Assembly (NCBI RefSeq): GCF_050320075.1
Contig: NZ_CP190018.1
From: Escherichia coli
GTDB lineage: Bacteria; Pseudomonadota; Gammaproteobacteria; Enterobacterales; Enterobacteriaceae
Reading direction: 5' to 3' (one strand)
DNA: 64,000 nucleotides
Shown: piece after piece, positions 884 through 39,841 of the stretch
Position numbering within the stretch: the stretch's first letter is position 1
Layout of the letters: the number at the start of each line of letters is the position of its first letter
The notes under the pieces: model-generated
Databases searched by the model: none
What the model was told of the DNA's origin: nothing
Seen by the model: only the letters and a program-made list of their open reading frames with translations
Program-made: the position numbers and the translations under genes

Positions 884-1385
884 AACCTGTTCCTTATTCT
901 GTGAACTTCAGGTGACATTAAAGCTTTACTCCTAATGGAGAAACGACGCAATCCCAACTCAGTCAAACAGGTAAATATTAGTCTGATTATTAGTAAAGAC
1001 AATTAATCAATCACTCTCGGTGATCATATGATTTCAACTGTAATTATAAGAAAATAATGTACTGATTCTCCATATTAAACAAGTGGTTAATATATGTAAA
1101 ACATTTTATTAACATTAAGTTGATTGTTGCCTTTCTTTGTATTTAATTAGTTTGTTGTGCGGTAAGTGTCTGTTTAAAAATAGCTTATCTGGTATTGCAT
1201 TAAAGCAATTATTTATAGCAGATGATTATTTACGGTGAGTTATTTTAACTGTGCGCAACATCCCATTTCGATTATTCCTGTTTCATTTTTGCTTGCTAGC
1301 GTCGCGAAAAACTTTTTAACAGATTGAAATACACCCAAAACAAAAGTATGACTTATACATTTATGTTAAGTAATTGAGCGTTTTG

Positions 1386-27130: not shown

Positions 27131-27189
27131 TCAAGGTCTAAATGCACTACATGGGCACCTAAACATATACATGTGATGTTGAGGTGTTA

Positions 27190-27210
27190 GAAAGGGGGCT
27201 GTTCAGCCCC
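27190..27210 (-). terminator. Rho-independent terminator for the 306-aa leftward gene
   Basis: On minus strand GGGGCTGAACAGCCCC hairpin followed by CTTTCT, immediately after the stop at 27219. Confidence 0.7.
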
Positions 27211-27218
27211 TGATAGAC

Positions 27219-28139
27219 TTAGTAATTATCCCTGACAACTTCATCATATCTTTCAATGAAGGTTAGTTGTTTATTACTTCCATTATAACTATCAACCCAT
27301 TTGTCTACAGCTTCATCGAATAGAAATAAAAAATCCGTATAATTTATATACACTACATTATCATAATATTGGGTTGGGTGACCTCTTTTACATACAGCAA
27401 TACTAAGACGTCTTTCTTTACCCTGAGTAACTTTGTGTGAATTAAGATTAGTCATGTGAAGCAATGAGTTCCTTAATTCATATAATTCGTCGGAAGTTAC
27501 TCCAAGTTTTTGTATATCTGAGTATGTATCTAACCAATTTTGAAAGACTCTTCTTTTGTTTCCAAACTCAATATAAGCTATAGTATCAATAAATGACATT
27601 AATAGCTTGAAGCTTGACAAGTAATGTTTTTTGTTAAACAGAAGCTTTATTGGTTCCATATGGTCATCATTAAGAAGTTCCTTAATGTGAAAACCATCAT
27701 CTTTCATATACTTATCAAGATAGTCTGGCAAGTCTTTTACACCTTCAATGTGATAGTTAGGTGTGTGCTTATTCCTTAATTGCTCTGACATTGATAACTG
27801 AATATCATATTGTAATTTGCCTTTAACAACGGGGGTGACTATAGCTAAAGGGTTTTCAGGTGCATTTTGAGCTTCTAATGCTAATTCAAACGGAGCAAAA
27901 GGATTACCAATCCGCAAATTTGCATTATATCTTTCAAGTGTCAATTTGTCATTTTCTAAAACAGAAGGGTGTATCCCATAAAATAAACGACAAGAAGCTA
28001 AGTCAATCTCCAAATTCCGCTTTAAAAAATCTAATTTTTGCGCATCATCGCCATCATGTTCGTGAGGTACTATTCCGGCATGTGTGATATGAACTCCATC
28101 AGGACTAAAGCAAAATATGTTGTAGATAATCTCTTTCAT
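27219..28139 (-). CDS. Hypothetical 306-aa protein, AT-rich, counter-oriented accessory gene in the element; has one R-x4-H (RNSLLH) motif
   Basis: Uninterrupted ORF with ATG start, own terminator, transcribed opposite to the rest of the element; no family recognised by eye. Confidence 0.6.
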   Translation of the reverse strand: MKEIIYNIFCFSPDGVHITHAGIVPHEHDGDDAQKLDFLKRNLEIDLASCRLFYGIHPSVLENDKLTLERYNANLRIGNPFAPFELALEAQNAPENPLAIVTPVVKGKLQYDIQLSMSEQLRNKHTPNYHIEGVKDLPDYLDKYMKDDGFHIKELLNDDHMEPIKLLFNKKHYLSSFKLLMSFIDTIAYIEFGNKRRVFQNWLDTYSDIQKLGVTSDELYELRNSLLHMTNLNSHKVTQGKERRLSIAVCKRGHPTQYYDNVVYINYTDFLFLFDEAVDKWVDSYNGSNKQLTFIERYDEVVRDNY

Positions 28140-28400
28140 ACCATTCTAACCTTCAGTGAAAATAAAGTTTTAACTATCATTAGATTATGAACAATCACAA
28201 TTGGCCTGTAAATAACAGGGCATAAACAGGTTCGTTTAGCTTGATTTTATCACTATAACTGTCTGATTTAACGGTAACTCACCAAGTATACACACAGTAA
28301 TTACACAATCCTGTTATTATGTAACTTATTGAAATATATAAATAATTTTTACATTCTTTGTTTGGGGTAAGCTGTGTAATGTTAGTCGTCCCTCTCCAGA

Positions 28401-28414
28401 CACTATATATAGTG
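28401..28414. promoter_or_regulatory. Perfect 14-bp palindrome CACTATATATAGTG in the 1.1 kb ORF-free spacer
   Basis: Read directly; embedded in a run of TATATA-containing repeats. Confidence 0.4.
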
Positions 28415-29102
28415 CTATATACAGGACTATATAACGATATATAGATGTTTGGTCACATGGTATAACTATCAAACCACTTAACGATTTCCTACGTGAAAGT
28501 TAGAAAGTGATAGTTATAGTTACCTTGTCAAATCTTCGTAGTCCCTTCTTAAAAAATCGTGAAAGGTAATCTTGTTATCTATACAGAATCTACGTAGATG
28601 CTTCTTAGTGCGCAAAACAGCTATTATGTTAAAAACGCACTGTATACGTATCAGTACTGATTTATAAGGGTTTTGTGTATTGGCTGATAAGAGGCTATAC
28701 AGCACCTTGAGAGCATGTCTTCTAAGTCATTGACATATAAGGTCACAGAAGTTTGTAGCTGTTACAGAGAAAACTGGATAGGACTTCACAGAACTATAAA
28801 ATGTTACAGCTATTGATAGGTGAAATCTTCTTGATAGATGCTTTGAAGTGTGGTGAAGGCTTTTTGAGGTGGGGCTAAACAGATATCATGAAGAAAGTCA
28901 ATAGTTGATTCGGTTTATCGAATAAACCTCATAGATATTTTAAAATTCTGCAAAGGGGGTCACATAGCTGGTGTGACGGGTACTTAGCAGCTACAGACAT
29001 CTATCAGATATTTTTGAAGATTTTTAGAAGGGGAATTTGAAGAGGGGCTACTACGATTTTATAAAAATTTTCAGATTCTGAAAAGTTACTGTACAGAATA
29101 TG

Positions 29103-29127
29103 TACAGATATCTTTAAAGTATCTGTA
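29103..29127. promoter_or_regulatory. Inverted repeat TACAGATA-N9-TATCTGTA (candidate operator) upstream of the MTase gene
   Basis: Read directly; adjacent direct repeats GTACAGA(A/T)AT and GATATCC x2. Confidence 0.4.
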
Positions 29128-29249
29128 AAAACTTTTAAGATAAAAGATAGATATCCCAGAAAGGATATCCGTTTAGAAAACCTATTAAGTATCTCTTAAA
29201 AGAGAGTAAACCTTGTCAAGAGTGATTGCAATAAAAATTTTTATTTCTT

Positions 29250-29912
29250 ATGTCAATTGAGTGTATTTTAATCGGGAAACATCATGGGGGTTCTGATTAC
29301 TGGAGAACTCCATTTTTGTTATTTAAGAACTTACACCGTGAATTTATTTTCAGTCTGGATGGTGCTGCAACTAAGCACGATACGTTATTACCCCGCTTTA
29401 CGGATGATATTCACAATCAGTCATGGGATGGTGAACGGGTATTCTGTAACCCACCATACAGCGACACTAAAACATTCCTCGTAAAAGCGTCTGAGGCAGA
29501 TTTATCGGTATTCCTGATACCGTACCGACCCCAAACCATATACTGGCTTAAGCACATCTTCACAAACCCGCTTTGCCATGAAATCCGTATTCTTCATCGT
29601 GCAGTTAAATACCTTCCACCAGCAGGGCATAACAGGCTTACTATTAGGTCGCCGTTTCCAAGTGCAGTCGTTGTTTTTAAAAAAGAACCACGCAGGCATG
29701 AAATTACGCAGATGGTTTGCTGTGCTGATACATTGCTACCGTTAACCATCATTAACAGAGGAGGCTTGAGAGGAAGGCCCACCATTTACCCACCTGAGAC
29801 GCTCGACAGCTTCATAAAACTATACAGGCAAGGCAAACCCATTAAGTGCATTGCAGATGCTCTCAGAATGCCTCTGAGCACGTCATACAGGATTGCTCAA
29901 AGGTTGAGCTAG
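29250..29912 (+). CDS. Phage-type DNA N6-adenine methyltransferase (Dam family) with C-terminal HTH-like tail
   Basis: SDYWRTPF...FSLDGAA...FCNPPY motifs typical of phage Dam MTases; C-terminal GRP...IADALRMPLSTSYRIAQRL resembles an HTH. Confidence 0.75.
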   Translation: MSIECILIGKHHGGSDYWRTPFLLFKNLHREFIFSLDGAATKHDTLLPRFTDDIHNQSWDGERVFCNPPYSDTKTFLVKASEADLSVFLIPYRPQTIYWLKHIFTNPLCHEIRILHRAVKYLPPAGHNRLTIRSPFPSAVVVFKKEPRRHEITQMVCCADTLLPLTIINRGGLRGRPTIYPPETLDSFIKLYRQGKPIKCIADALRMPLSTSYRIAQRLS

Positions 29913-30052
29913 AATTCTCATAAATATGGTCATTTACAAGACAGGTGATTTAGATATTAAGAGGTATCCCTGTGAACAATAAATGACCAATCAGTAATTA
30001 TCCTGTGAAATAATTGTTGCAATTTATAATCACACATGGTATAGTTTCATAG

Positions 30053-30197
30053 TGGACTGATAAAAAAGTTCATGTCTTGAAGTGGTAACACTTGGGGAGG
30101 TGTCAGATGATTGACGTATATTAACCTCTCATTCATGGTAATACCTCAGCGTTTTAATCATCGTACTGTTTCAGGCATGGACTTCTTTATCAGTCCA
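30053..30197. promoter_or_regulatory. 145-bp segment bracketed by a perfect 12-bp inverted repeat (TGGACTGATAAA / TTTATCAGTCCA) upstream of the initiator gene
   Basis: Read directly at 30053-30064 and 30186-30197. Confidence 0.4.
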
Positions 30198-30276
30198 TCA
30201 ATCCCCCAGATATTTTAATCACACAGGCTAATCGGTTTTATCCGGTTGGCCTTTTCACGTATGAGGTAATTTATGA

Positions 30277-31245
30277 ATGAAAAAAGAAACTAATGCTTTT
30301 ATTATGGTAGATAAACGAGTTGCACAATTCCCTAAAACATTAAAGCCAATTGACCGCTTGGTATATTTCACTATGCTGGATGGTGCTGATTATTACGAAT
30401 CTAAGTTCGGGAGATACGCACCAAGTATTGACTATTTGATGGTTATGTCTGGTGCTACACGTAATACAGTTATTGATTCACTTAAGAGACTTGAGTCACA
30501 CAGACTTATCGAAAAGACCAATGTAAAGGGTCAGCAAAGTATTTTTAAAGTATTCACGTTGGATGAGCGTCCAGAGGTCTTATCAGAACCTACCCTTGAT
30601 GAGCGTCGTAGAGCTAAATTATCAGGTCAACCAGAATCTGACAGTAACCCAACCAAAAATTGGTTACCTACCCAACCAGAATTTGGTTACCTACCTAACC
30701 AGAATTTGGTTACATGTAATACTGAATATAAAGACAAAAATATAAATACTGAAGAAGAAAGACTAAAAGGGAACTTTGAAGAAGAATCTCTTAAGAAGGG
30801 AGCTTCGCTCTGTGATTCACATGAATGTGATATTAAAGAAGATGACTTTCTTTCTTTGGATGAATTAAATGATTTTCTCTCTATGAATGAATCTGGCCTT
30901 GATAGTGAAGCTACTAAAGAGGCTGTTAAAAAGGAAGATAAAATCTCTGATGTGAATATCGATAGTGACCATAAAAACACACAGTGCCCCGCCACTGATG
31001 ATGAGATGGACCCCTTCGATGATTACCTTGATGAAGAGTCAGAGCGTGAAAAAGCCATTAAGAGGGTAGAGAAGAAAAAGAGATTCGAGCTTGCAAGACA
31101 AAAGAACAAAGTATCGGGTTTAGACCCATTCGATGACAGTGACGATGATGACTTTTCTTTCACACCAAGAAAGAAACAAACTCAGGATGACAAGAAGCAA
31201 AAAATTAAACCGAAGATGTATTTTGCTGGTGGAGGTATGCGCTAA
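30277..31245 (+). CDS. Putative replication initiator / replisome organiser (N-terminal winged-helix-like domain, acidic C-terminal tail)
   Basis: N-terminus resembles phage initiator DNA-binding domains; tandem iterons inside the ORF; highly acidic low-complexity C-terminal half. Confidence 0.55.
   Translation: MKKETNAFIMVDKRVAQFPKTLKPIDRLVYFTMLDGADYYESKFGRYAPSIDYLMVMSGATRNTVIDSLKRLESHRLIEKTNVKGQQSIFKVFTLDERPEVLSEPTLDERRRAKLSGQPESDSNPTKNWLPTQPEFGYLPNQNLVTCNTEYKDKNINTEEERLKGNFEEESLKKGASLCDSHECDIKEDDFLSLDELNDFLSMNESGLDSEATKEAVKKEDKISDVNIDSDHKNTQCPATDDEMDPFDDYLDEESEREKAIKRVEKKKRFELARQKNKVSGLDPFDDSDDDDFSFTPRKKQTQDDKKQKIKPKMYFAGGGMR
30641..30714. repeat. Tandem 23-bp direct repeats (iterons) inside the initiator ORF: TTGGTTACCTACC(C/T)AACCAGAAT
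   Basis: Two full units at 30660-30682 and 30683-30705 (1 mismatch) plus flanking partial units. Confidence 0.8.
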
Positions 31246-31541
31246 TGAAAGAATATCACGGTGAAAAGAGATACAAAGATTACCTGTTAAAGCGTTATAG
31301 CATTTCTCGTGAAGGCCACTTAATGAAGGATACTCACGGGGAAGTTTACCGGATTAGACCGAAGAAAGAAGGGAGGGATTATTTCTTTTACGATGGTGTG
31401 ACAGATTTAAAGATTGATGCTTTGAAGTTTGCGGCGCTGTATCATTATGATATCTGGGACTCAGTCCACCAGCTACGATTAAAAGACGGTGACCCCGGTA
31501 ATCTGAGGGCCACCAATATTATCAAGGGAAAGTGCCGGTAA
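31245..31541 (+). CDS. Small HNH_3/NUMOD4-like protein (98 aa), catalytic His not evident
   Basis: YSISREGHLMKDTHGEVYRIRPKKEGRDYFFYDG...LKDGDPGNLRATN resembles NUMOD4/HNH_3 layout; overlaps initiator stop. Confidence 0.45.
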   Translation: MKEYHGEKRYKDYLLKRYSISREGHLMKDTHGEVYRIRPKKEGRDYFFYDGVTDLKIDALKFAALYHYDIWDSVHQLRLKDGDPGNLRATNIIKGKCR

Positions 31542-31864
31542 GTCCACCAGCTATTTATTTATTGAAATCTCTATCTCAACACGAAGAAGTTTAAGTCGAA
31601 TTGTAAGCTTTGTCTTTTTTGTAATGACTCGATTCATAACGCAAAACACCAATAGCACAATAAATACCGCAAAGCCCAACGAGCTAAAACGATGAGATTC
31701 AATAATTGCTGTGAAAAAATCATGCATTAATTTTCCTTTTGCGAAAGGAAACAGCACCTGTATCAGCCCCTATAACCATAATATCATGTAAATGAGATGT
31801 TGACAATATGTTAAATAAATGTTATGATTGTAGTATGAGTAAGAGATTTAAGGAGATTTTTACA

Positions 31865-32155
31865 ATGACTCACACAGTTACGCGCCTTTTGCCAGAGGCA
31901 TTTGAACGACTGGCAGCAATCAAAGCCAAATATCCCGATATGAAGCACACAGCGCTTGTTGGAGAGCTTTTAAAAGAGTCGGTAACCCTGACCCCTTTCG
32001 ATAACGTTAAGGGCGTTGCAGAGGGTTCTAAGGCCATCAGAATCACAACGGACCAACTGGAACTACTCAAAGCACAGTCCGCAGTAGCAGGTTGCTCAAT
32101 GATTCAGGTGTTAAGCGCAAAGGTCCATCAATTAGCGGATAGGCTGGGGGTTTAA
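31865..32155 (+). CDS. Hypothetical small protein (96 aa)
   Basis: AAGGAG RBS 8 nt upstream of ATG at 31865; ORF-track start at 31808 is probably an extension; stop overlaps next gene (TAATG). Confidence 0.5.
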   Translation: MTHTVTRLLPEAFERLAAIKAKYPDMKHTALVGELLKESVTLTPFDNVKGVAEGSKAIRITTDQLELLKAQSAVAGCSMIQVLSAKVHQLADRLGV

Positions 32156-32580
32156 TGCTATGCACATTTGATTATCATGCGTTTTATCGCCATAGAGGCC
32201 ACCTTGTCCGTGAGAATAGCGGAACATGGAAAGATTTAACTCGTAATGCTGAACCCTTCACACACCAGCAATTAAAATCCCGCTTCTCCAGATGGAAGAA
32301 TGCACCAGCAGATACTGGTGATTTTGAGATTATCCATACCTTCGATTATGCCTCAGAAGATGACCTTCACGATGCAATTAAGCTGATTGAAGACTTCAAT
32401 ACCTCAGAAGATGTGGATGGTGACAAATATAAATCCCGTGGTAACCGCTATAACCGTGATGATATCACTCAGGCCATAAATGCTGGTCAATCTCAGCGAT
32501 ACATTACAGAAAAATATGGTATTTCACGGAGACAGTATTTCTACGTTAAATCATTGATTAATAAAGACAATTCAAAATAA
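32155..32580 (+). CDS. Hypothetical protein (141 aa) with C-terminal HTH-like segment
   Basis: Translationally coupled to upstream gene; C-terminus ...QSQRYITEKYGISRRQYFYVK resembles a Hin/resolvase-type HTH. Confidence 0.5.
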   Translation: MLCTFDYHAFYRHRGHLVRENSGTWKDLTRNAEPFTHQQLKSRFSRWKNAPADTGDFEIIHTFDYASEDDLHDAIKLIEDFNTSEDVDGDKYKSRGNRYNRDDITQAINAGQSQRYITEKYGISRRQYFYVKSLINKDNSK

Positions 32581-32741
32581 CCATCTCAGTAACGGTAGAA
32601 TGCACTTTACAGGCAGAGTTGCACCTTAATTTGATAAATTACCTTACCAGCCAGTGCAACTCCCTCTGTAACCCGCATGATTACTGGTCTCAGAATGGCT
32701 ATTTTAAGAGGTCTGAGATGTGTTTTGTAGGAGATTTAAAA

Positions 32742-33065
32742 ATGAACAACTTCCCATTACAGATTTTCGTTGATAACGACACCGCTATGATGGTGCAAAG
32801 CTTCAGTGATGCAGGTATTAGCATTGATTTTGACAGGCTGTTAAAGCTAATGGCTGATAATGAAGAAAACGTCTCTGACTTTATTCACTCGGTGGAGTTT
32901 AACGAGCCTCGAATGATGTTACCAATTACAGACAGTAATATGAAAAGATTGGTTATTGAGCAAACGAACAAATACAGTATTTCCCCAGAGCAATTTTTGA
33001 AAGGTGCTGTGACAATCCTGTACAGCGATAATATTTTGGTTACGGATTCCGTGAGGGTTCACTAA
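32742..33065 (+). CDS. Hypothetical small protein (107 aa)
   Basis: GGAG-type RBS before ATG at 32742; ORF-track start at 32619 is probably an extension. Confidence 0.45.
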   Translation: MNNFPLQIFVDNDTAMMVQSFSDAGISIDFDRLLKLMADNEENVSDFIHSVEFNEPRMMLPITDSNMKRLVIEQTNKYSISPEQFLKGAVTILYSDNILVTDSVRVH

Positions 33066-33359
33066 TGGGCTTAATAATTGCTTGGACGTTGCTTGGCTTA
33101 TTTGTTGGTTGCTGGGTAGGCAGCACAGTAAATAGAAATTGATGTTACCAATCTGTTAAAAAGCTGTTGACAAATAACCTTAAGCATGAGATGATGGTAA
33201 TAGGGGAGAGCAACTCTCTCTTATTTTTCTTTCAAAATAATCCGATGGATGGATATTCTGAATTGGAAAGGTGCAATGCTTTTCGTCATGGCCTTTCAGT
33301 TTAGTCTGAGAGGCTATCTCAAAAAGTGCTTAATCATTCATTGAACCCTTTACAGCTTT

Positions 33360-33387
33360 GCCCTAACTCATGATTAGGGCTTTCTTT
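33360..33387 (+). terminator. Rho-independent terminator-like hairpin
   Basis: Stem GCCCTAA/TTAGGGC with 7-nt loop followed by TTTCTTT. Confidence 0.55.
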
Positions 33388-33456
33388 AAGAGTTTTTAAA
33401 CAGAGCTTTTAAAGAAAGTTTTTCCTGAAACTTCGTTAACGTTAAAGCAAACCTTC

Positions 33457-33520
33457 AAAGCCCTTCACAGATGAGGATGATTCCATGAATATCCGAATCA
33501 CCTATGTTTAGGGCTTTTTT
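33457..33520 (+). ncRNA. Long-loop hairpin with U-tract (candidate small RNA 3' end or attenuator)
   Basis: Outer stem AAAGCCCT/AGGGCTTT enclosing inner GGAT/ATCC stem, followed by T6. Confidence 0.3.
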
Positions 33521-33636
33521 CAGCTTTTAAAAAGCATACTTGGCAAACGCCTTTTAAGCCTCTTCTAAGTTCGAGGATGTCAGGTGTGCTTTTTAAAAAC
33601 TGAAACATAAATTATCTTAGAAGAGGAAAGGTATTA

Positions 33637-34341
33637 ATGGCTATCCGTGATGAAAATGAAATGATTATTGAAAACAAACCAAGTGCACTTGATATTCACG
33701 AATTAAGTTTGCGTGAATCTTTTGATAGAGCTTGGCGGGAATCACACGAAGTAAATAAAGGTCCATATATTCCACCAGAACCACTCGAGATTCCAAGAGT
33801 TGAAATTGATTTTTCTATGAACGAACGGTGTGAACTTGATTTGAAGTTGAAGCTACAACGCCGATATTTCCAAGCTATTAAAGACTCTCAAGAAGCAATG
33901 AGAAGTGTTTATGAGAAAATTCAGTCCAAGCTTGAAGACGAAATTGACGAAATGGCTATTTTGATGGAGCTTCAAACCAATCCTTATGCTTATTTCTCTC
34001 GACTAGACCGTGACGGTTGGGGGTATGACCCTGTAGAGATTGGTAAAGTGATTGCAGATTTACCAGAAGGTCAAAGGGTTATTCGTACGGAAAGGGCCAT
34101 CAGAGCGCCACATCAACTGTCTCTAATTGTTGCTGATAAATCACAAGCTGAGCTTGAAGAAATTGCCAAAGAGAAACTGATGAAAGCAAGAGAAAATGAG
34201 ATTAATTTGCTGAAATCAAGACTGGCTAAGCTGATTAGTGACCATCAAGCGCTGGCTAAGGAGTACCGTCAAGAGTTGGCACAGATTATCAGCTTCAATG
34301 ATTTTCTGAGTGTTCCACGAGAATTTAGCAAGGCTGTTTGA
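33637..34341 (+). CDS. Hypothetical protein (234 aa), charged coiled-coil-rich
   Basis: ORF with ATG and GAGG-type RBS; no family recognised. Confidence 0.55.
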   Translation: MAIRDENEMIIENKPSALDIHELSLRESFDRAWRESHEVNKGPYIPPEPLEIPRVEIDFSMNERCELDLKLKLQRRYFQAIKDSQEAMRSVYEKIQSKLEDEIDEMAILMELQTNPYAYFSRLDRDGWGYDPVEIGKVIADLPEGQRVIRTERAIRAPHQLSLIVADKSQAELEEIAKEKLMKARENEINLLKSRLAKLISDHQALAKEYRQELAQIISFNDFLSVPREFSKAV

Positions 34342-34364
34342 TTATGAATTAAAAGAGGTGATTA

Positions 34365-34583
34365 ATGTATGAAGACCGTTTGGAAACTATCAAGGCAGTT
34401 TGTGAAAAACTTAAAAACCAACCACGTAAACCAAAAACGGTAAAGAGTAAGCATCAGCCTGTCACCTCAAACAGCAAAATAAAGATTCGCAAAATTCCTT
34501 CGTGGTGCATTGACCGTATTCCGGTTGGTTCAAGAATTATTCGTGAAGATGGTGATTATCATTGGGTATCAGTTGTTGGTTAG
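34365..34583 (+). CDS. Hypothetical small basic protein (72 aa)
   Basis: RBS GAGGTG before ATG; gene-dense context. Confidence 0.45.
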   Translation: MYEDRLETIKAVCEKLKNQPRKPKTVKSKHQPVTSNSKIKIRKIPSWCIDRIPVGSRIIREDGDYHWVSVVG

Positions 34584-34671
34584 TTAGTAAAAATCTACGG
34601 GAGAGATTATCGAGTGATATCGGTAGCTCTCCCTTTTTCGTATATGAACACTTAAGAGGTGAAAAATATGA

Positions 34672-36804
34672 ATGAGCAAATTCACAGTTGATAGTTTTAT
34701 CGTTGAATTAAGCTTCAATGAAAACATTATTAAGGGCTTGCAAAGAGTTGAAAAGGCAGCTTTGCAGTCAGCACAAAGAATTGAAAAGAACCTAAATAAA
34801 GGTTTCAGGATTAATACAAAGCAGCTTGATAGTAATTTAACGGCTTCTTTAGGGCAGCTTGAAAGGAAGTTTAATAAGGCCTTTGACAAGATTGAACAGA
34901 GAGCAAGAAATACTAAAGCTTTCCAGTTTACCACCAGATTTAATGACACTGTTAATCCTCCAAAACAACCGAGACAGCCACGAATTAGCGGCAACAGAGC
35001 AATCACAGCAGCTTACTCAGCGAATATGAGCAAGCTAAAAGGCTTTGACCCTATTTTGCAGAAATACATCAAATCTCAGTTTTACGGGCTATCTGCTAAA
35101 GCCGGTTCAATGGATTCTTCAAAATTCAATGAGAAGTTAGCTCAGTTAAACGCTTCAGTCAGAGAAGCAATTGCTAAAGCCAGAGGTCATACATCCACCA
35201 GCATTAATGGTGACAGAGCAGCTAATAGTCTTGATAACCTGTCTTCAGCAGCAGTTAAAACAGCAGGTGCATTTATCTCAATGCAGGCTGTATTAGCCAG
35301 TTATCAGAAGATTATGGAAATTGGTTTACAGCGTGCAAGTGCTGAACGTTCAATTGATTTCGTATTTGATAAAGATGCAGGTCAAGTAAAAGAGTTCACA
35401 AAGTCATTAGCTCAAACAACGGGTTTAGATATCGCTGAACTGCAATCACAGTTTGCTGGTTTTGGTGCTTCAGCTAAAGAGTCTATGGGCATTCAAGGTT
35501 CTGAAGAACTTTTTAAAAATATGATTGGCTATGCTCGTCTGATGGGGAGAAGTGAAGAAGAGATTAAGCGAGCACTGACAGCATTATCACAGATGGCTGG
35601 TAAGGGTCAGGTTATGGCTGAAGAGCTTAAGGGGCAATTAGCTGAAGCTGTTCCTGGTATGGTTCAGGTATTCGCTAAAGCAACCGGAAGGAATGAACAA
35701 GAGCTATTTGATGCCATGAAGAAGGGGGCTTTAAAATCTGCCGATACTCTTCAGAAGGTCACTCAGGAACTGAATAAACAAATCACCGCTAAAGGTGGCT
35801 GGAAAGCTATTTCAGAAAGTACACAGGCACAACTAGGGAACCTGAAAAACTCTTGGAATACCACGCTTGATAGTATCTTCAGAGGTTCTGAAGATGGTCT
35901 GCAAGATTTTACAAGAAGCTTAACAACGCTTTTAAACGCTCTTGGTGGAAGTGGTAAAAGTCTTGGTGAATCTCTTGGTAGTCTCATGACTTCTATGTCA
36001 CATGGTGTCGATTCATTGACTGATATCAGCTACAGGGTAAGAGCATTCTTCGATGAGGTGACATTAGCTTACCGTTCACTAAATGACACTCAGAAAAAAA
36101 TTGTTGATGGTTTATCTGATGGGTTAATTGATGGTTTGAAGATGCTTGCCGTAGCTGTTACTGCTCAAAAGGCTGCAAATGTAGCTGGAGGCTTGTTAAA
36201 CCTTGCAAATGCTGTTACTTCATTCGGTGATGCTGTTAATAAAGCTAAAGCTGGCAAGGCTGGTTCTTCAGGTGGTGCGCTAAATAAAGTTGGTAGAGTT
36301 GTTCTTTATGCTGAGTTGGTGAACTTTGCTCTTGATAATTTAAACCCTGAAGCGGCTAAGAATCCGAACTTACACCAATCAGGTATTGGAACAGAGACAA
36401 ACTTCAACCCTGAATACAAAGGCGATTCATCTAAACCAAACCAAATTAATGATGGATGGGCTAAGATTGGTAGTTCTATCGCTGACTGGTTTAATGGTGC
36501 GGCTAATAAAATTGCTAACTTCCAAGACCCGATGAATAACTTTGTTAATAACACACAATCAACTCCACCAGCTATCACAGGTGACATGGTTAATAGCAAT
36601 GCTCAACTTGCTATGGCTGTATCAGAGTTAGGAAGAAAGGTAGACGCTTTAACAGTAGAAGCTAAGAAGCCTTTATCAGTTAATATCAAAGGTGAAGCAA
36701 TTGTTAGACCGGATGAACCAGCTTTCTTTACTTTCAATCAATCAGCTAATGACCAGTTCACGCAGGATATGCTCTTAAGTTCAAGCTATCCAGAGGAAGA
36801 ATGA
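34672..36804 (+). CDS. Tape-measure-domain-like protein (710 aa)
   Basis: Central segment ...MAEELKGQLAEAVPGMVQVFAKATGRNEQELFDAMKKGALKSADTLQKV... resembles the conserved phage tape-measure domain; Ala/Gly/Ser-rich low-complexity C-terminal part. Confidence 0.55.
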   Translation: MSKFTVDSFIVELSFNENIIKGLQRVEKAALQSAQRIEKNLNKGFRINTKQLDSNLTASLGQLERKFNKAFDKIEQRARNTKAFQFTTRFNDTVNPPKQPRQPRISGNRAITAAYSANMSKLKGFDPILQKYIKSQFYGLSAKAGSMDSSKFNEKLAQLNASVREAIAKARGHTSTSINGDRAANSLDNLSSAAVKTAGAFISMQAVLASYQKIMEIGLQRASAERSIDFVFDKDAGQVKEFTKSLAQTTGLDIAELQSQFAGFGASAKESMGIQGSEELFKNMIGYARLMGRSEEEIKRALTALSQMAGKGQVMAEELKGQLAEAVPGMVQVFAKATGRNEQELFDAMKKGALKSADTLQKVTQELNKQITAKGGWKAISESTQAQLGNLKNSWNTTLDSIFRGSEDGLQDFTRSLTTLLNALGGSGKSLGESLGSLMTSMSHGVDSLTDISYRVRAFFDEVTLAYRSLNDTQKKIVDGLSDGLIDGLKMLAVAVTAQKAANVAGGLLNLANAVTSFGDAVNKAKAGKAGSSGGALNKVGRVVLYAELVNFALDNLNPEAAKNPNLHQSGIGTETNFNPEYKGDSSKPNQINDGWAKIGSSIADWFNGAANKIANFQDPMNNFVNNTQSTPPAITGDMVNSNAQLAMAVSELGRKVDALTVEAKKPLSVNIKGEAIVRPDEPAFFTFNQSANDQFTQDMLLSSSYPEEE

Positions 36805-36967
36805 TTTCTTATATATCCGTGTGCTACGTGATTTCTTCTGAACAGATATACCCACTAAAAATTATTTTTTACGTAGCTCACGCTTAACAGAGAAAATACT
36901 TATATATCAAAGGCTTGGTTAAAAATGATTAAAATACACTAAGCCTTTGAAATCAAAGGAGAATTTA

Positions 36968-37741
36968 ATGATTTACTCTAATCAGATTCGTTACAGTGGT
37001 AAAGATGGCGTTTACTTTCATCTACAAGGCCAGCCAGATAATTTCTTGTCACTATCAGCTACTGAGAACATGGAATTTGACAGCCCTATGATGGTTACCA
37101 CTCAAAATATGCAATCAGGGCAGACTGTCACAGATAATGTAATGCGTTCACCCAGAACTATTTCAATCAGTGGTGTGGTTGTAGTTGGTGAATCCGGTAG
37201 TATCCTTATCTCAAGAGATAATAAGCTGGTGGAAAACTTCATAGACACTCTTGAAAACTGGCGTGACCAGAAGCAAATTATCTCAGTTGTCTGTAAAGAT
37301 GGTATTAAGATTGACGACTCAATTATTACAAACTTTAAAGCCTCTAAAGATGTTGGTATTGCCAATGGTCTTAGAATCCAATTAACTTTTCAGGAAATTA
37401 ACTTTAAAGCTATTGTGGGTCAGACTGATATCTCGGCTGCGACCGGAAGGACTTCTACCACAAGTGATGGTGGTGCTACCAGTAAAAAGAATACAGGGAA
37501 CACTACGACAAGCTTAGGTAACGGTATGTTGATGTGTCAGGAGCTATATAATCGCTCTACGAGTGAACTTACTAATGAGCAACTTCAAGCCCGTATCAAT
37601 TGTGGTAAAAATGTCAGAGTTAAGAACGGAAAAAGCACCTTCTCAGATGCCGCTAATGAGCAAGCTTCAAAGGTGCTTAATAATGCTGGTACAGGTAGTA
37701 CTTTGAAGAAGTATTCTGTTAATCCTAACAAGCGATACTGA
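36968..37741 (+). CDS. Hypothetical protein (257 aa), possible virion/tail-associated
   Basis: AAGGAG RBS before ATG at 36968 (ORF-track start 36947 is TTG); directly follows the tape-measure-like gene. Confidence 0.45.
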
Positions 37742-37755
37742 CGATAGAATCTCAA

Positions 37756-39279
37756 CTATATGATAACCTCATCAACATCTATTAAACCCCTCTCAGTGAC
37801 TTCAGAAAGCGACTGTATAGCCTCTGTAACGTTGTCTGAGGGGTTTTCTGTTATTGGTAAGGTGATTGCTTTACCGTTGTGAAAAGTTACTTTACAGCGA
37901 CGTTTAGCAGTATTTAAAACGACCTCTTTAACAGCACTTTTGATTATCAGTTGTGCTTCAATCCTTCCCGCCTTTGTAGTCAAGTCACAATCAGACAAAC
38001 AACCCACATCAATAGATTTAAGGCGTTGTGTCTCCTTCTCGATATCCGCATCAACTTGTGATAGCTCATTCTTTAGTTGTCTTAGTTTGCTGGTAATAGC
38101 GGACAAGTCTTCAATTTCAAGTGATAGCTGTACCAGCTTTTCAATATTGCTTGAGATGTGTTCACGGTGTAGCTTCAGTGTGTCTATGGTATTCGTCATA
38201 TCGCTATCAAATCGGTCAAGACGAGATAGCAGGGCAAGCAATGTACCATCGGTTTGCTTACGTGAAAGTCCTTTAGCACTACAACGGTTTTCATTACGAA
38301 GAGGACAACGATAAATCCCGTTTCTTGTATCGCTAAAGCCTGTGATAATCAAAGCATGACCACATTCAGAACAACGGATAACACCTTTGAAAAGATTCAC
38401 AGCCATTGGCTTATCTGAAGCAGGTTTTCTACCGTAACGAGCATATGATAGTTGTTGAACTTTGTAGAATGTTGTTTCATCTATAATTGCAGGATAATAA
38501 CCAGATATCTCCTCACAGCCTTTAGGTGTGAAGTAACCAATTACAGAGCGATTCTTCAAAAGGTCTTGCACTGAGGTTTGACCAAACTTACCTGCTTTGT
38601 ACTGGTTAAGCGTCTGGTGACCTTCAGCATTAAGAGTTCTGACAATCTCCCAGATAGACTTACCCTCTAACCGTAGCTGAAAGCACCTCTTCACAGTCTC
38701 CACTTTCTCAGGTATCACAGAGAAGCTTTTACGGTCATCATTAAGCTTAAGCCATGCAGGACAACGCCTAGAAATCTTGATACCAGCTTTAGCAGCTTCT
38801 TTCTTTGCATCCCATGCAGCTTGTATACGCTCAGCCTTACGTAATGATTCCTCATGCGCCCTTTGCATTATCAAAATGCTTTTAATCAGAGCTAACGGGT
38901 CTTTAAGAGATTCCCTTGTGTAATGTTCACCATCGGACAGGGTGACTACATCTACACCAGAGCGAAGAATGTTTCTGAGTAGCTCACTTGCTTGGTCTAC
39001 GTCCTGACGTGAGAGACGGTCTAAACTCTCGATTAGTAGTGTATCACCAGCTTTAACAAGCCCTTTCTCGATAGCGGTTAAAAAGTCACCTAAGCCACCT
39101 TTCAAGTGCTTACCAGTGAACCCGCTAACGCCTAAATCACGAAAAGTAAGGGATTCATCCAGATAGTACTCAGGATGAGCCTTAAGCCAATCAGTGACCA
39201 TCTTAGCCTGTCGTCTTAATGAGTCGCCTCTGGATTGCTTCTCAGATGAAAACCGGATGTAACTGATTGCACGTTTCAT
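37756..39279 (-). CDS. Large serine recombinase (integrase)
   Basis: 507 aa; N-terminal resolvase-type catalytic domain (YIRFSSEKQ with catalytic Ser), recombinase domain, Cys-rich zinc ribbon (CSECGH...YRCPLRNENRC), C-terminal coiled coil; adjacent to attR. Confidence 0.9.
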   Translation of the reverse strand: MKRAISYIRFSSEKQSRGDSLRRQAKMVTDWLKAHPEYYLDESLTFRDLGVSGFTGKHLKGGLGDFLTAIEKGLVKAGDTLLIESLDRLSRQDVDQASELLRNILRSGVDVVTLSDGEHYTRESLKDPLALIKSILIMQRAHEESLRKAERIQAAWDAKKEAAKAGIKISRRCPAWLKLNDDRKSFSVIPEKVETVKRCFQLRLEGKSIWEIVRTLNAEGHQTLNQYKAGKFGQTSVQDLLKNRSVIGYFTPKGCEEISGYYPAIIDETTFYKVQQLSYARYGRKPASDKPMAVNLFKGVIRCSECGHALIITGFSDTRNGIYRCPLRNENRCSAKGLSRKQTDGTLLALLSRLDRFDSDMTNTIDTLKLHREHISSNIEKLVQLSLEIEDLSAITSKLRQLKNELSQVDADIEKETQRLKSIDVGCLSDCDLTTKAGRIEAQLIIKSAVKEVVLNTAKRRCKVTFHNGKAITLPITENPSDNVTEAIQSLSEVTERGLIDVDEVII

Positions 39280-39346
39280 TGTTCACCTCACCAATAGCAG
39301 TTGGGCTTGTACCAACCCCTAGATTGTATCGCTTTAGATGGTGTAT

Positions 39347-39841
39347 TTAAACGTGTCTAATAAAAATCACCCGATTAACGCCGCGCTGATGTAAACCGCG
39401 ATTAAGCGTTTGTTCCTCTTCCCCTTTGGCGAAAAACTGTGGATGGCGGACTTCCACACCATAATTAAATTCGCCGGGAAGGGAATCGAGAAAATGCCAA
39501 AGCGCAGGCAGATCCCGTGGGCCAAATGTGGCAGGCAGTTGCAGCCAGTATTGCCCAATGCGCGGCGCTAACGGTGACATGCGGGTCAAAAATTCAGTCA
39601 CTAAATCATCGCAATGCCGTAATGCTGCCTGATGCGAAATGGTCGCCGGAAACTTAAAACAGAAGCGAAAATTATCTGTGGTCTGCTCACGCCAGCGCAG
39701 GACAACCTCGGATTTCGGCAGGGCGTAAAGCGTGGTGTTGCCCTCCACACAGTTAAAGTGGCGGGCATACTCTTCAAGGCTGGTGATCCCCAACCGCACC
39801 CATTTAGGATGCGACCATTGCGGCAGACCGATGTAAATCAT
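39347..39841 (-). pseudogene. yecE: yecE 5' fragment (N-terminal ~158 native codons, reads 6 codons into the insert before a stop)
   Basis: Translation [29 protein letters not shown]... (DUF72); 158 + 114 codons reconstitute a 272-aa protein. Confidence 0.85.
39363..39369. repeat. attR core (AAAATCA) of the yecE insertion
   Basis: Identical 7-mer to 27124-27130. Confidence 0.65.

Follow-up and report, generated by a model that had tools for sequence, protein, structure and literature searches.

In P22 immI (arc-ant) and in the CopG and Omega systems, a strong promoter, which overlaps a divergent one, reads first into a small ribbon-helix-helix (RHH) gene and then into an effector gene. Operators of the Arc/CopG/Omega type consist of repeated subsites about one helical turn apart. 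The pair of small genes described here, which we call gA and gB, has the same operon and operator layout, with a regulation that we infer. It differs from arc-ant and CopG in that those regulators act as dimers, whereas gA is modelled as a tandem single chain, and in that Ant is unrelated to gB. Tandem RHH repeats in one chain, as in the gA model, occur in F-plasmid TraY, AvtR, DndE and engineered single-chain Arc. However, TraY has a relaxosome role and is encoded together with a relaxase and oriT, whereas the island that carries gA has neither a relaxase nor transfer genes.

Two further groups of systems share single features with the locus. Toxin-antitoxin modules such as ParDE, RelBE, TacAT and MazEF-mt resemble gA-gB in gene size, order and overlap and in that the upstream gene encodes an RHH fold, but the antitoxin tail, the toxin fold and the obligate co-occurrence of ParDE-type systems are all missing in gA-gB. 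The Hin, gamma-delta and Tn3 resolvases (HTH_7) share their helix-turn-helix (HTH) with gB, in which an orphan domain replaces the serine-recombinase catalytic domain.

For the island as a whole, the described counterpart is PLE of Vibrio cholerae, a serine-recombinase island with its own replication initiator and with tape-measure and baseplate-type genes (bioRxiv 10.1101/2025.01.29.635557). The present island is like PLE in gene layout, with a large serine recombinase, a replication initiator, and tape-measure and baseplate-type tail genes; it is unlike PLE in its Escherichia host, in having no known helper phage and in that no PLE-type genes were recognised in it. According to two preprints, Vibrio PLEs and Mycolicibacterium EPIPs are so far the only satellites with reported tape-measure genes. 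A literature search found no paper on this E. coli island.

The island and its overlapping gene pair

The window, i.e., the whole 64-kb stretch of E. coli DNA that was analysed, contains a 12.2-kb phage-satellite-like island (27132-39364) with a GC content of 0.37-0.40, compared to about 0.52 in the flanks, which splits yecE (DUF72) into two fragments and was inserted there by a large serine recombinase. On its plus strand, the genes follow in the order Dam methylase, replication-initiator-like gene, 98-aa gene, gA, gB, 107-aa gene, 234-aa gene, 72-aa gene, tape measure gene and Dit-like gene (Table 1). The last two are the only virion genes of the island, in which no capsid, terminase, portal or lysis gene was found, nor any relaxase, transfer or nuclease gene. 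At the left end, a 306-aa gene (27219-28139, minus strand) matches nothing in Pfam, NCBIfam or PADLOC and is absent from the relatives L010 and L011; it is possibly cargo. Related islands with this gene order occupy two further positions on the chromosomes of E. coli and E. albertii. Therefore, the island family is mobile, and an earlier note on this DNA, which had placed the gene pair in a mobile element, is supported in this respect. DNA and protein searches of phage and plasmid collections returned no match.

The same note had described two small overlapping plus-strand genes, and both the open reading frames and the PGAP annotation, which agree exactly on the ends, confirm them; PGAP/RefSeq names each a hypothetical protein. 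A longer reading frame from 31808 was rejected as gA, given that it lies mostly upstream of the predicted transcription start. The TAATG overlap that had been reported at 32152-32157 is real, but its true place is one base later, at 32153-32157, where the gA stop codon TAA (32153-32155) and the gB start codon ATG (32155-32157) have one base in common. Such one-base overlaps are common in operons. Here, six relatives, with protein identities as low as 42%, retain the whole junction, GG(A/G)GGTTTAATG, and L014 has TGATG in place of TAATG. Both gA and gB are genuine genes under purifying selection: against relatives, dN/dS is 0.06-0.29 for gA and 0.14-0.34 for gB, and within gB both domains are constrained (0.11-0.24 for the N-terminal domain, 0.13-0.31 for the HTH).

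Table 1. Coordinates of the gA-gB operon, its control elements and neighbouring island genes (window positions, except where a relative is named)
Feature	Position	Strand	Remarks
Dam methylase gene	29250-29912	+	C-terminal HTH_7
58-aa hydrophobic protein gene	31551-31727	-	divergent from gA; unannotated; one hydrophobic segment
Divergent promoter-like site	31778-31806	-	TTGTCA-17-TATTAT; -35 overlaps the P1 -35
Operator-like array at P1	31798-31823	+	TGTT at 31798, 31809 and 31820, 11-bp phase; ATGTA at 31786
Promoter P1	31800-31828	+	TTGACA 31800-31805, 17-nt spacer, TATGAT 31823-31828, TG extension
gA	31865-32155	+	96 aa; AAGGAG at 31850-31855
gA parts (modelled)			repeat 1, residues 3-36; conserved linker, 39-55, low model confidence; repeat 2, 57-94
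Translational-coupling cassette GGGGGTTTAATG	32146-32157	+	gB Shine-Dalgarno inside gA; stop and start share one base
gB	32155-32580	+	141 aa; GGGGG at 32146-32150
gB N-terminal orphan domain	32155-32409	+	residues 1-85 (modelled ~4-82); strand-strand-strand-helix-strand-helix
gB disordered linker	32410-32445	+	residues 86-97; GNRY arm at end
gB C-terminal Hin/resolvase-type HTH and stop codon	32446-32580	+	residues 98-141; three helices at 101-140
Imperfect 25-nt inverted repeat/stem-loop	32600-32678	+	between gB and 107-aa gene; dG -29.7 kcal/mol, z -3.5
Third cistron, 107 aa	32742-33065	+	RHH reading by inspection
Fourth cistron, 25-aa hydrophobic peptide	33065-33142	+	unannotated; coupled to 107-aa gene by TAATG
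Promoter P2 and second TGTT x3 array	33143-33195	+	array 33143-33168 ends in -35 TTGACA (cTGTTGACA); -10 GATGAT 33190-33195
P2 leader region	33143-33392		5' hairpin 33203-33222, conserved structured stretch, terminator 33360-33380 with T-run
Terminator-like hairpin with T-run	33199-33225		directly downstream of 25-aa ORF, after P2
Tape measure protein gene	34672-36804	+	island
Dit-like 'baseplate' protein gene	36968-37741	+	island
Large serine recombinase gene	37756-39279	-	507 aa; island end; best NCBIfam match XisF
Short gB (N-domain only, 73-76 aa)	L010 7291-7521; L011 7291-7512; L012 2501-2731
90-aa HNH endonuclease gene	L012 2229-2501; L013 2229-2501		between gA' and short gB

Predicted folds and distribution of gA and gB

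gA is predicted to be a single-chain protein with two RHH repeats. Its AlphaFold2 model, computed from a 16-sequence alignment, runs strand-helix-helix twice (E3-7, H10-22, H28-36, then E57-61, H62-75, H79-94), and the paired units form a two-stranded antiparallel sheet, as in the RHH (MetJ/Arc/CopG) fold; the confidence of the model is moderate (mean pLDDT 66, pTM 0.62). In fold comparisons, gA agrees best with F-plasmid TraY and single-chain Arc, and DndE and AvtR were matched too, whereas ordinary RHH dimers, including many antitoxins, cover ~40-45 residues of gA, i.e., one repeat. Two arginines, R7 and R59, which are placed mid-strand in each repeat, are invariant, and gA', the 27%-identical counterpart in the second island subfamily, has both of them too. 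Since no significant sequence similarity was seen between the halves of gA, the tandem-RHH assignment rests on the model. At the level of sequence, gA lies outside every curated family: no Pfam RHH model reaches its threshold (Omega_Repress alone gives a score, E 0.13, with 13 bits where the cut-off is 33.3), and a PDB sequence search gave no match. NCBIfam and PADLOC likewise returned nothing for either member of the pair. The model contains no C-terminal toxin-neutralising tail, as the two RHH repeats and a 17-residue linker take up all 96 residues.

The AlphaFold2 model of gB (pLDDT 82.7) has three parts (Table 1). For the C-terminal part, the HTH-like segment noticed earlier holds up, and the PDB match, Pfam and the model all place it in the Hin/resolvase type. 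The gamma-delta resolvase HTH is the sole sensible PDB sequence match of gB, a weak one, and the rest is noise. The stretch comprising GNRY, a helix, GQSQ, a helix and the helix after S124 aligns with the arm and HTH of resolvase, giving a three-helix HTH behind a basic minor-groove arm, as in HTH_7. Among 11 members of the gB family, HTH_23 and HTH_28 each match nine and HTH_7 six (best E 6e-7); the gB of this window itself falls below the Pfam cut-off for HTH_7. PHROG scans of the family gave scattered weak HTH-type matches only. The island Dam methylase also ends in a Hin-type HTH (GRPTIY..., HTH_7 E 2.8e-4), the same kind of domain as in gB. In addition, two database proteins (P0058 and P0059) are chimeras in which the N-terminus of a 185-aa or of the 107-aa protein is fused directly to the gB HTH, which points to deletion or recombination events at the linker of gB in certain genomes.

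The N-terminal domain of gB is modelled with a block-mean pLDDT of 85-94 across residues 11-80. It has no match in Pfam, PHROG, NCBIfam or PADLOC, and structural and sequence searches gave no informative relative. When 1.84 billion cluster representatives were searched exhaustively with HMMER, only 13 gB-family proteins came up, and a profile built from the N-domains alone added no annotated relatives; the family is tiny, and every traced member is enterobacterial (Enterobacteriaceae). Several assignments of gB were tried and discarded. As a serine recombinase, gB lacks a PF00239 match, and the fold order of its N-domain is unlike any resolvase core. A small terminase subunit has an N-terminal HTH followed by an oligomerisation core; in gB the HTH is C-terminal, and the sole link to terminases is a weak PHROG match in one member. 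Foldseek returned weak matches to HNH, homing-endonuclease and T5orf172 proteins. However, gB has no Pfam match as a GIY-YIG or HNH endonuclease and no invariant catalytic residues, and a degenerate, I-TevI-like GIY-YIG N-domain was rejected as unsupported, at an hhalign probability of 0.2% against I-TevI.

Among 5,426 complete E. coli genomes, DNA of gA is present in 126 and that of the long gB, the type in the window, in 59. At least 36 other gA-bearing genomes have, again with a one-base overlap, an ORF of 73-76 aa after gA, which is the gB N-domain without the HTH (full-length hhalign alignment, E 3.8e-4); though conserved and translationally coupled, this short gB is unannotated in the RefSeq records examined. 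In L012 and L013, where the HNH gene stands between gA' and short gB, the HNH-gB junction has the same coupling cassette, i.e., the cassette moves with the 5' end of gB. Another HNH_3-AP2 gene is found in L015 (5195-5719). The short gB genes of L012 and L010 are 98% identical in DNA, whereas the upstream gA' is only 27% identical to gA.

Distant homologues of gB also occur away from any coupled RHH gene. In a Klebsiella prophage, one directly follows the portal gene and overlaps its stop codon; in a small integrase island, one stands alone between the replication module and the capsid gene, with the nearest RHH gene 435 nt upstream; and another, with no coupled RHH gene directly upstream, lies alone ahead of a replication-initiator-like gene. 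The check across genomes thus argues against obligate co-occurrence of the pair, with gB relatives that have no gA and one short allele found behind two gA types and behind the HNH gene. The order "RHH gene, then gB" is nevertheless retained in both island subfamilies. Given gB without gA and the mixing of alleles, the conserved unit is therefore an RHH gene followed by a gB N-domain gene in one operon. Judging from these sequences, gA and gB are not a co-evolving cognate pair, and the free combination of alleles argues against a specific gA-gB complex.

TGTT arrays at two predicted promoters and the proposed control circuit

The predicted promoter P1, directly upstream of gA, shares 11 of 12 positions with the sigma-70 consensus. 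Its operator-like array, in which ATGTT recurs at 31797, 31808 and 31819, overlaps the -35 and reaches the -10. L010 and L011 share the 72-bp block that contains it (31757-31828) at 100% identity, despite diverged flanks. The pattern TGTT-N7-TGTT-N7-TGTT occurs exactly twice in the 64 kb (both strands; 0.00 expected), at P1 and at P2, with differing geometry: at P1 it extends from the -35 to the -10, and at P2 it lies on and upstream of the -35. Four relatives have the exact triple pattern, which is confined there to positions equivalent to P1 or P2. The P2 block, with TTGACA and the repeats, is conserved in seven of seven relatives, including the 42%-identity subfamily and E. albertii, whose P2 repeats are degenerate (TGAT). 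A promoter-like site at 33167, with a hairpin behind it, had been considered a chance match; this was dropped, as the site is conserved in all seven relatives. In the divergent islands, (A)ATGTTAA repeats lie beside the TTGACA of the gA'-containing operon. The E. albertii relatives L014 and L015 have gA and no P1 array, which weighs against control by gA through these arrays. The same 11-bp-phased motif is seen once more as ATGTTAATAAAATGTT (1089-1116, minus strand) in the low-GC stretch that opens the window, which may be chance or the mark of a related element.

Which protein binds these repeats can be narrowed from the relatives. Since L010 and L011 keep identical arrays without the gB HTH, this HTH is unlikely to be the TGTT binder. 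The most likely candidate is gA, which is encoded directly behind P1 and whose asymmetric single chain would fit asymmetric direct repeats. The 107-aa product of the third cistron (PLQIFV..., MMLPITDSNMKRLVIEQTNKYSISPEQFLKGAV), which by eye also resembles a tandem RHH protein, might be the binder in its place; the gene combinations of the relatives fit both candidates.

The remaining elements of the locus lie on either side of the pair. On the far side of P1, the divergent promoter-like site faces the 58-aa gene, which is followed by a terminator-like hairpin (31551-31534). Positional counterparts of this gene were called in L002 and L015, and PGAP annotates one in L012; its product could be a small membrane effector governed from the same operator region. 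Downstream of gB, the stem-loop is nearly identical in E. albertii L015, where gB is only 82% identical, and its right half with the sequence that follows is present in 179 E. coli genomes, i.e., more than have gA. The fourth cistron encodes MGLIIAWTLLGLFVGCWVGSTVNRN, and similar peptides of 22-25 aa are found in the same place in L010, L011, L012, L014 and L015. Beyond P2, a leader or RNA some 185 nt long is predicted ahead of the tail genes. Two to three terminators lie within this leader, which is followed by the 234-aa gene, the tape measure gene and the Dit-like gene. Compensatory changes were seen in 7 of its 27 predicted pairs among five relatives, and its terminator stems persist with differing sequence in L002, L014 and L015. 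An Rfam scan across the island, P2 leader included, gave nothing credible.

Altogether, these results suggest that the locus is, on balance, probably an autoregulated regulatory operon of the mobile island, with gA the likely TGTT repressor and gB a separable second regulator. The earlier note had offered a regulator/anti-regulator module as one of its two readings, and the regulator part of it is supported by the predicted DNA-binding folds, by the strong promoter and by the operator-like repeats that recur at P2. The existence of the genes, their coupling and selective constraint, the synteny and the repeat statistics are directly observed. Whereas the folds are predicted, we infer the DNA binding itself, the identity of the TGTT binder, the direction of regulation and the role of gB. 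Specifically, P1 would drive four cistrons, encoding gA, gB, the 107-aa RHH-like protein and the 25-aa peptide. One chain of gA would do the work of an Arc/CopG dimer, and several gA monomers could line up along the same face of the helix, at TGTT subsites 11 bp apart. Occupation of the P1 array from the -35 to the -10 would result in negative autoregulation of the operon, and occupation of the P2 array, on and upstream of the -35, would make expression of the structured leader and of the tail genes behind it depend on gA as well. Translational coupling would lead to gB being made in a fixed ratio to gA. Within gB, the Hin-type HTH may be an optional DNA tether and the conserved N-domain the working part, which most likely serves island control as an effector or through protein interaction; given that the N-domain has no informative relative, its role is a guess.

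Alternative readings and significance

Four other readings of the pair have to be weighed against promoter control. All are less well supported, three of them (directionality factor, DNA processing and selfish insertion) because the repeats coincide with two promoters. That gA is an RHH antitoxin autoregulating P1 and gB the toxin of a type II module, the other suggestion of the earlier note, would account for two adjacent, co-transcribed small genes with the RHH gene first. However, the gA model lacks a neutralising tail; gB carries a DNA-binding domain and matches no toxin family or fold in Pfam, PDB, NCBIfam or PADLOC; and gB homologues occur without a partner, with alleles interchangeable between gA types. 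With tail, toxin family and obligate co-occurrence all missing, the toxin-antitoxin proposal is not supported and is very improbable. Scarcely better placed is the idea that one or both proteins serve as recombination directionality factor of the large serine recombinase. Directionality factors of serine integrases are small and diverse; the island has no other recognisable candidate, gB has a resolvase-type HTH, and XisF, the best NCBIfam match of the recombinase, needs two small accessory proteins. Against this, neither protein resembles XisH, XisI or any known directionality factor, an integrated element would not be expected to express its excision factor from a strong, constitutive-looking promoter, and the TGTT arrays are located at promoters rather than at the island ends. 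We therefore consider this role highly unlikely.

The two readings that we regard as unlikely concern DNA processing and selfish insertion. In the former, gA would be a TraY-like architectural DNA-bender at a cis site and gB a site-specificity factor resembling a small terminase or the partner of an HNH nuclease, the pair acting in replication or packaging, which would agree with the HNH insertions in sister islands and with gB homologues inside head and packaging modules. Yet the island has no terminase, relaxase or nuclease, the domain order of gB is reversed with respect to known small terminases, the HTH is missing from many sister islands, and repeats placed exactly on two promoters fit transcription control. 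In the latter, gB would be a selfish or accessory insertion, homing-endonuclease-derived or a "moron", that rides on upstream translation with no functional link to gA. Its polymorphism in the 126 gA-bearing genomes (59 with the long form, at least 36 with one short type, some with HNH plus short) is as expected of such an insertion, as are the coupling cassette that accompanies the gB 5' end even behind HNH, the homologue that overlaps the portal stop codon, and a layout of N-domain, linker and C-terminal HTH that recalls I-TevI-type enzymes, with weak Foldseek endonuclease matches. This is opposed by the lack of a conserved catalytic motif, of a GIY-YIG/HNH Pfam match and of hhalign similarity to I-TevI (0.2%), by purifying selection on both domains, and by the RHH-then-gB order in both island subfamilies; we think it improbable to a like degree.

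Regulation by gA at P1 and P2 thus remains the preferred reading. A more far-reaching version of it is conceivable but doubtful. In that version, gA and gB would form the central switch of a so far undescribed class of enterobacterial phage satellites that, as Vibrio PLEs do, have tape-measure and distal-tail genes of their own and a large serine recombinase; the single-chain RHH repressor would hold both TGTT-phased promoters, and the orphan domain of gB would act as the sensor or effector that links the island to a helper phage. The pair itself is a fairly ordinary regulatory operon, and a false toxin-antitoxin candidate has been removed; the surrounding island may be more novel than the operon. 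gA offers a predicted natural single-chain RHH protein with a testable putative operator of three to four TGTT subsites, present at two promoters in opposite geometry. The N-domain of gB is new, a true orphan, and the operon is a likely switch of an island family that occupies three or more chromosomal sites.
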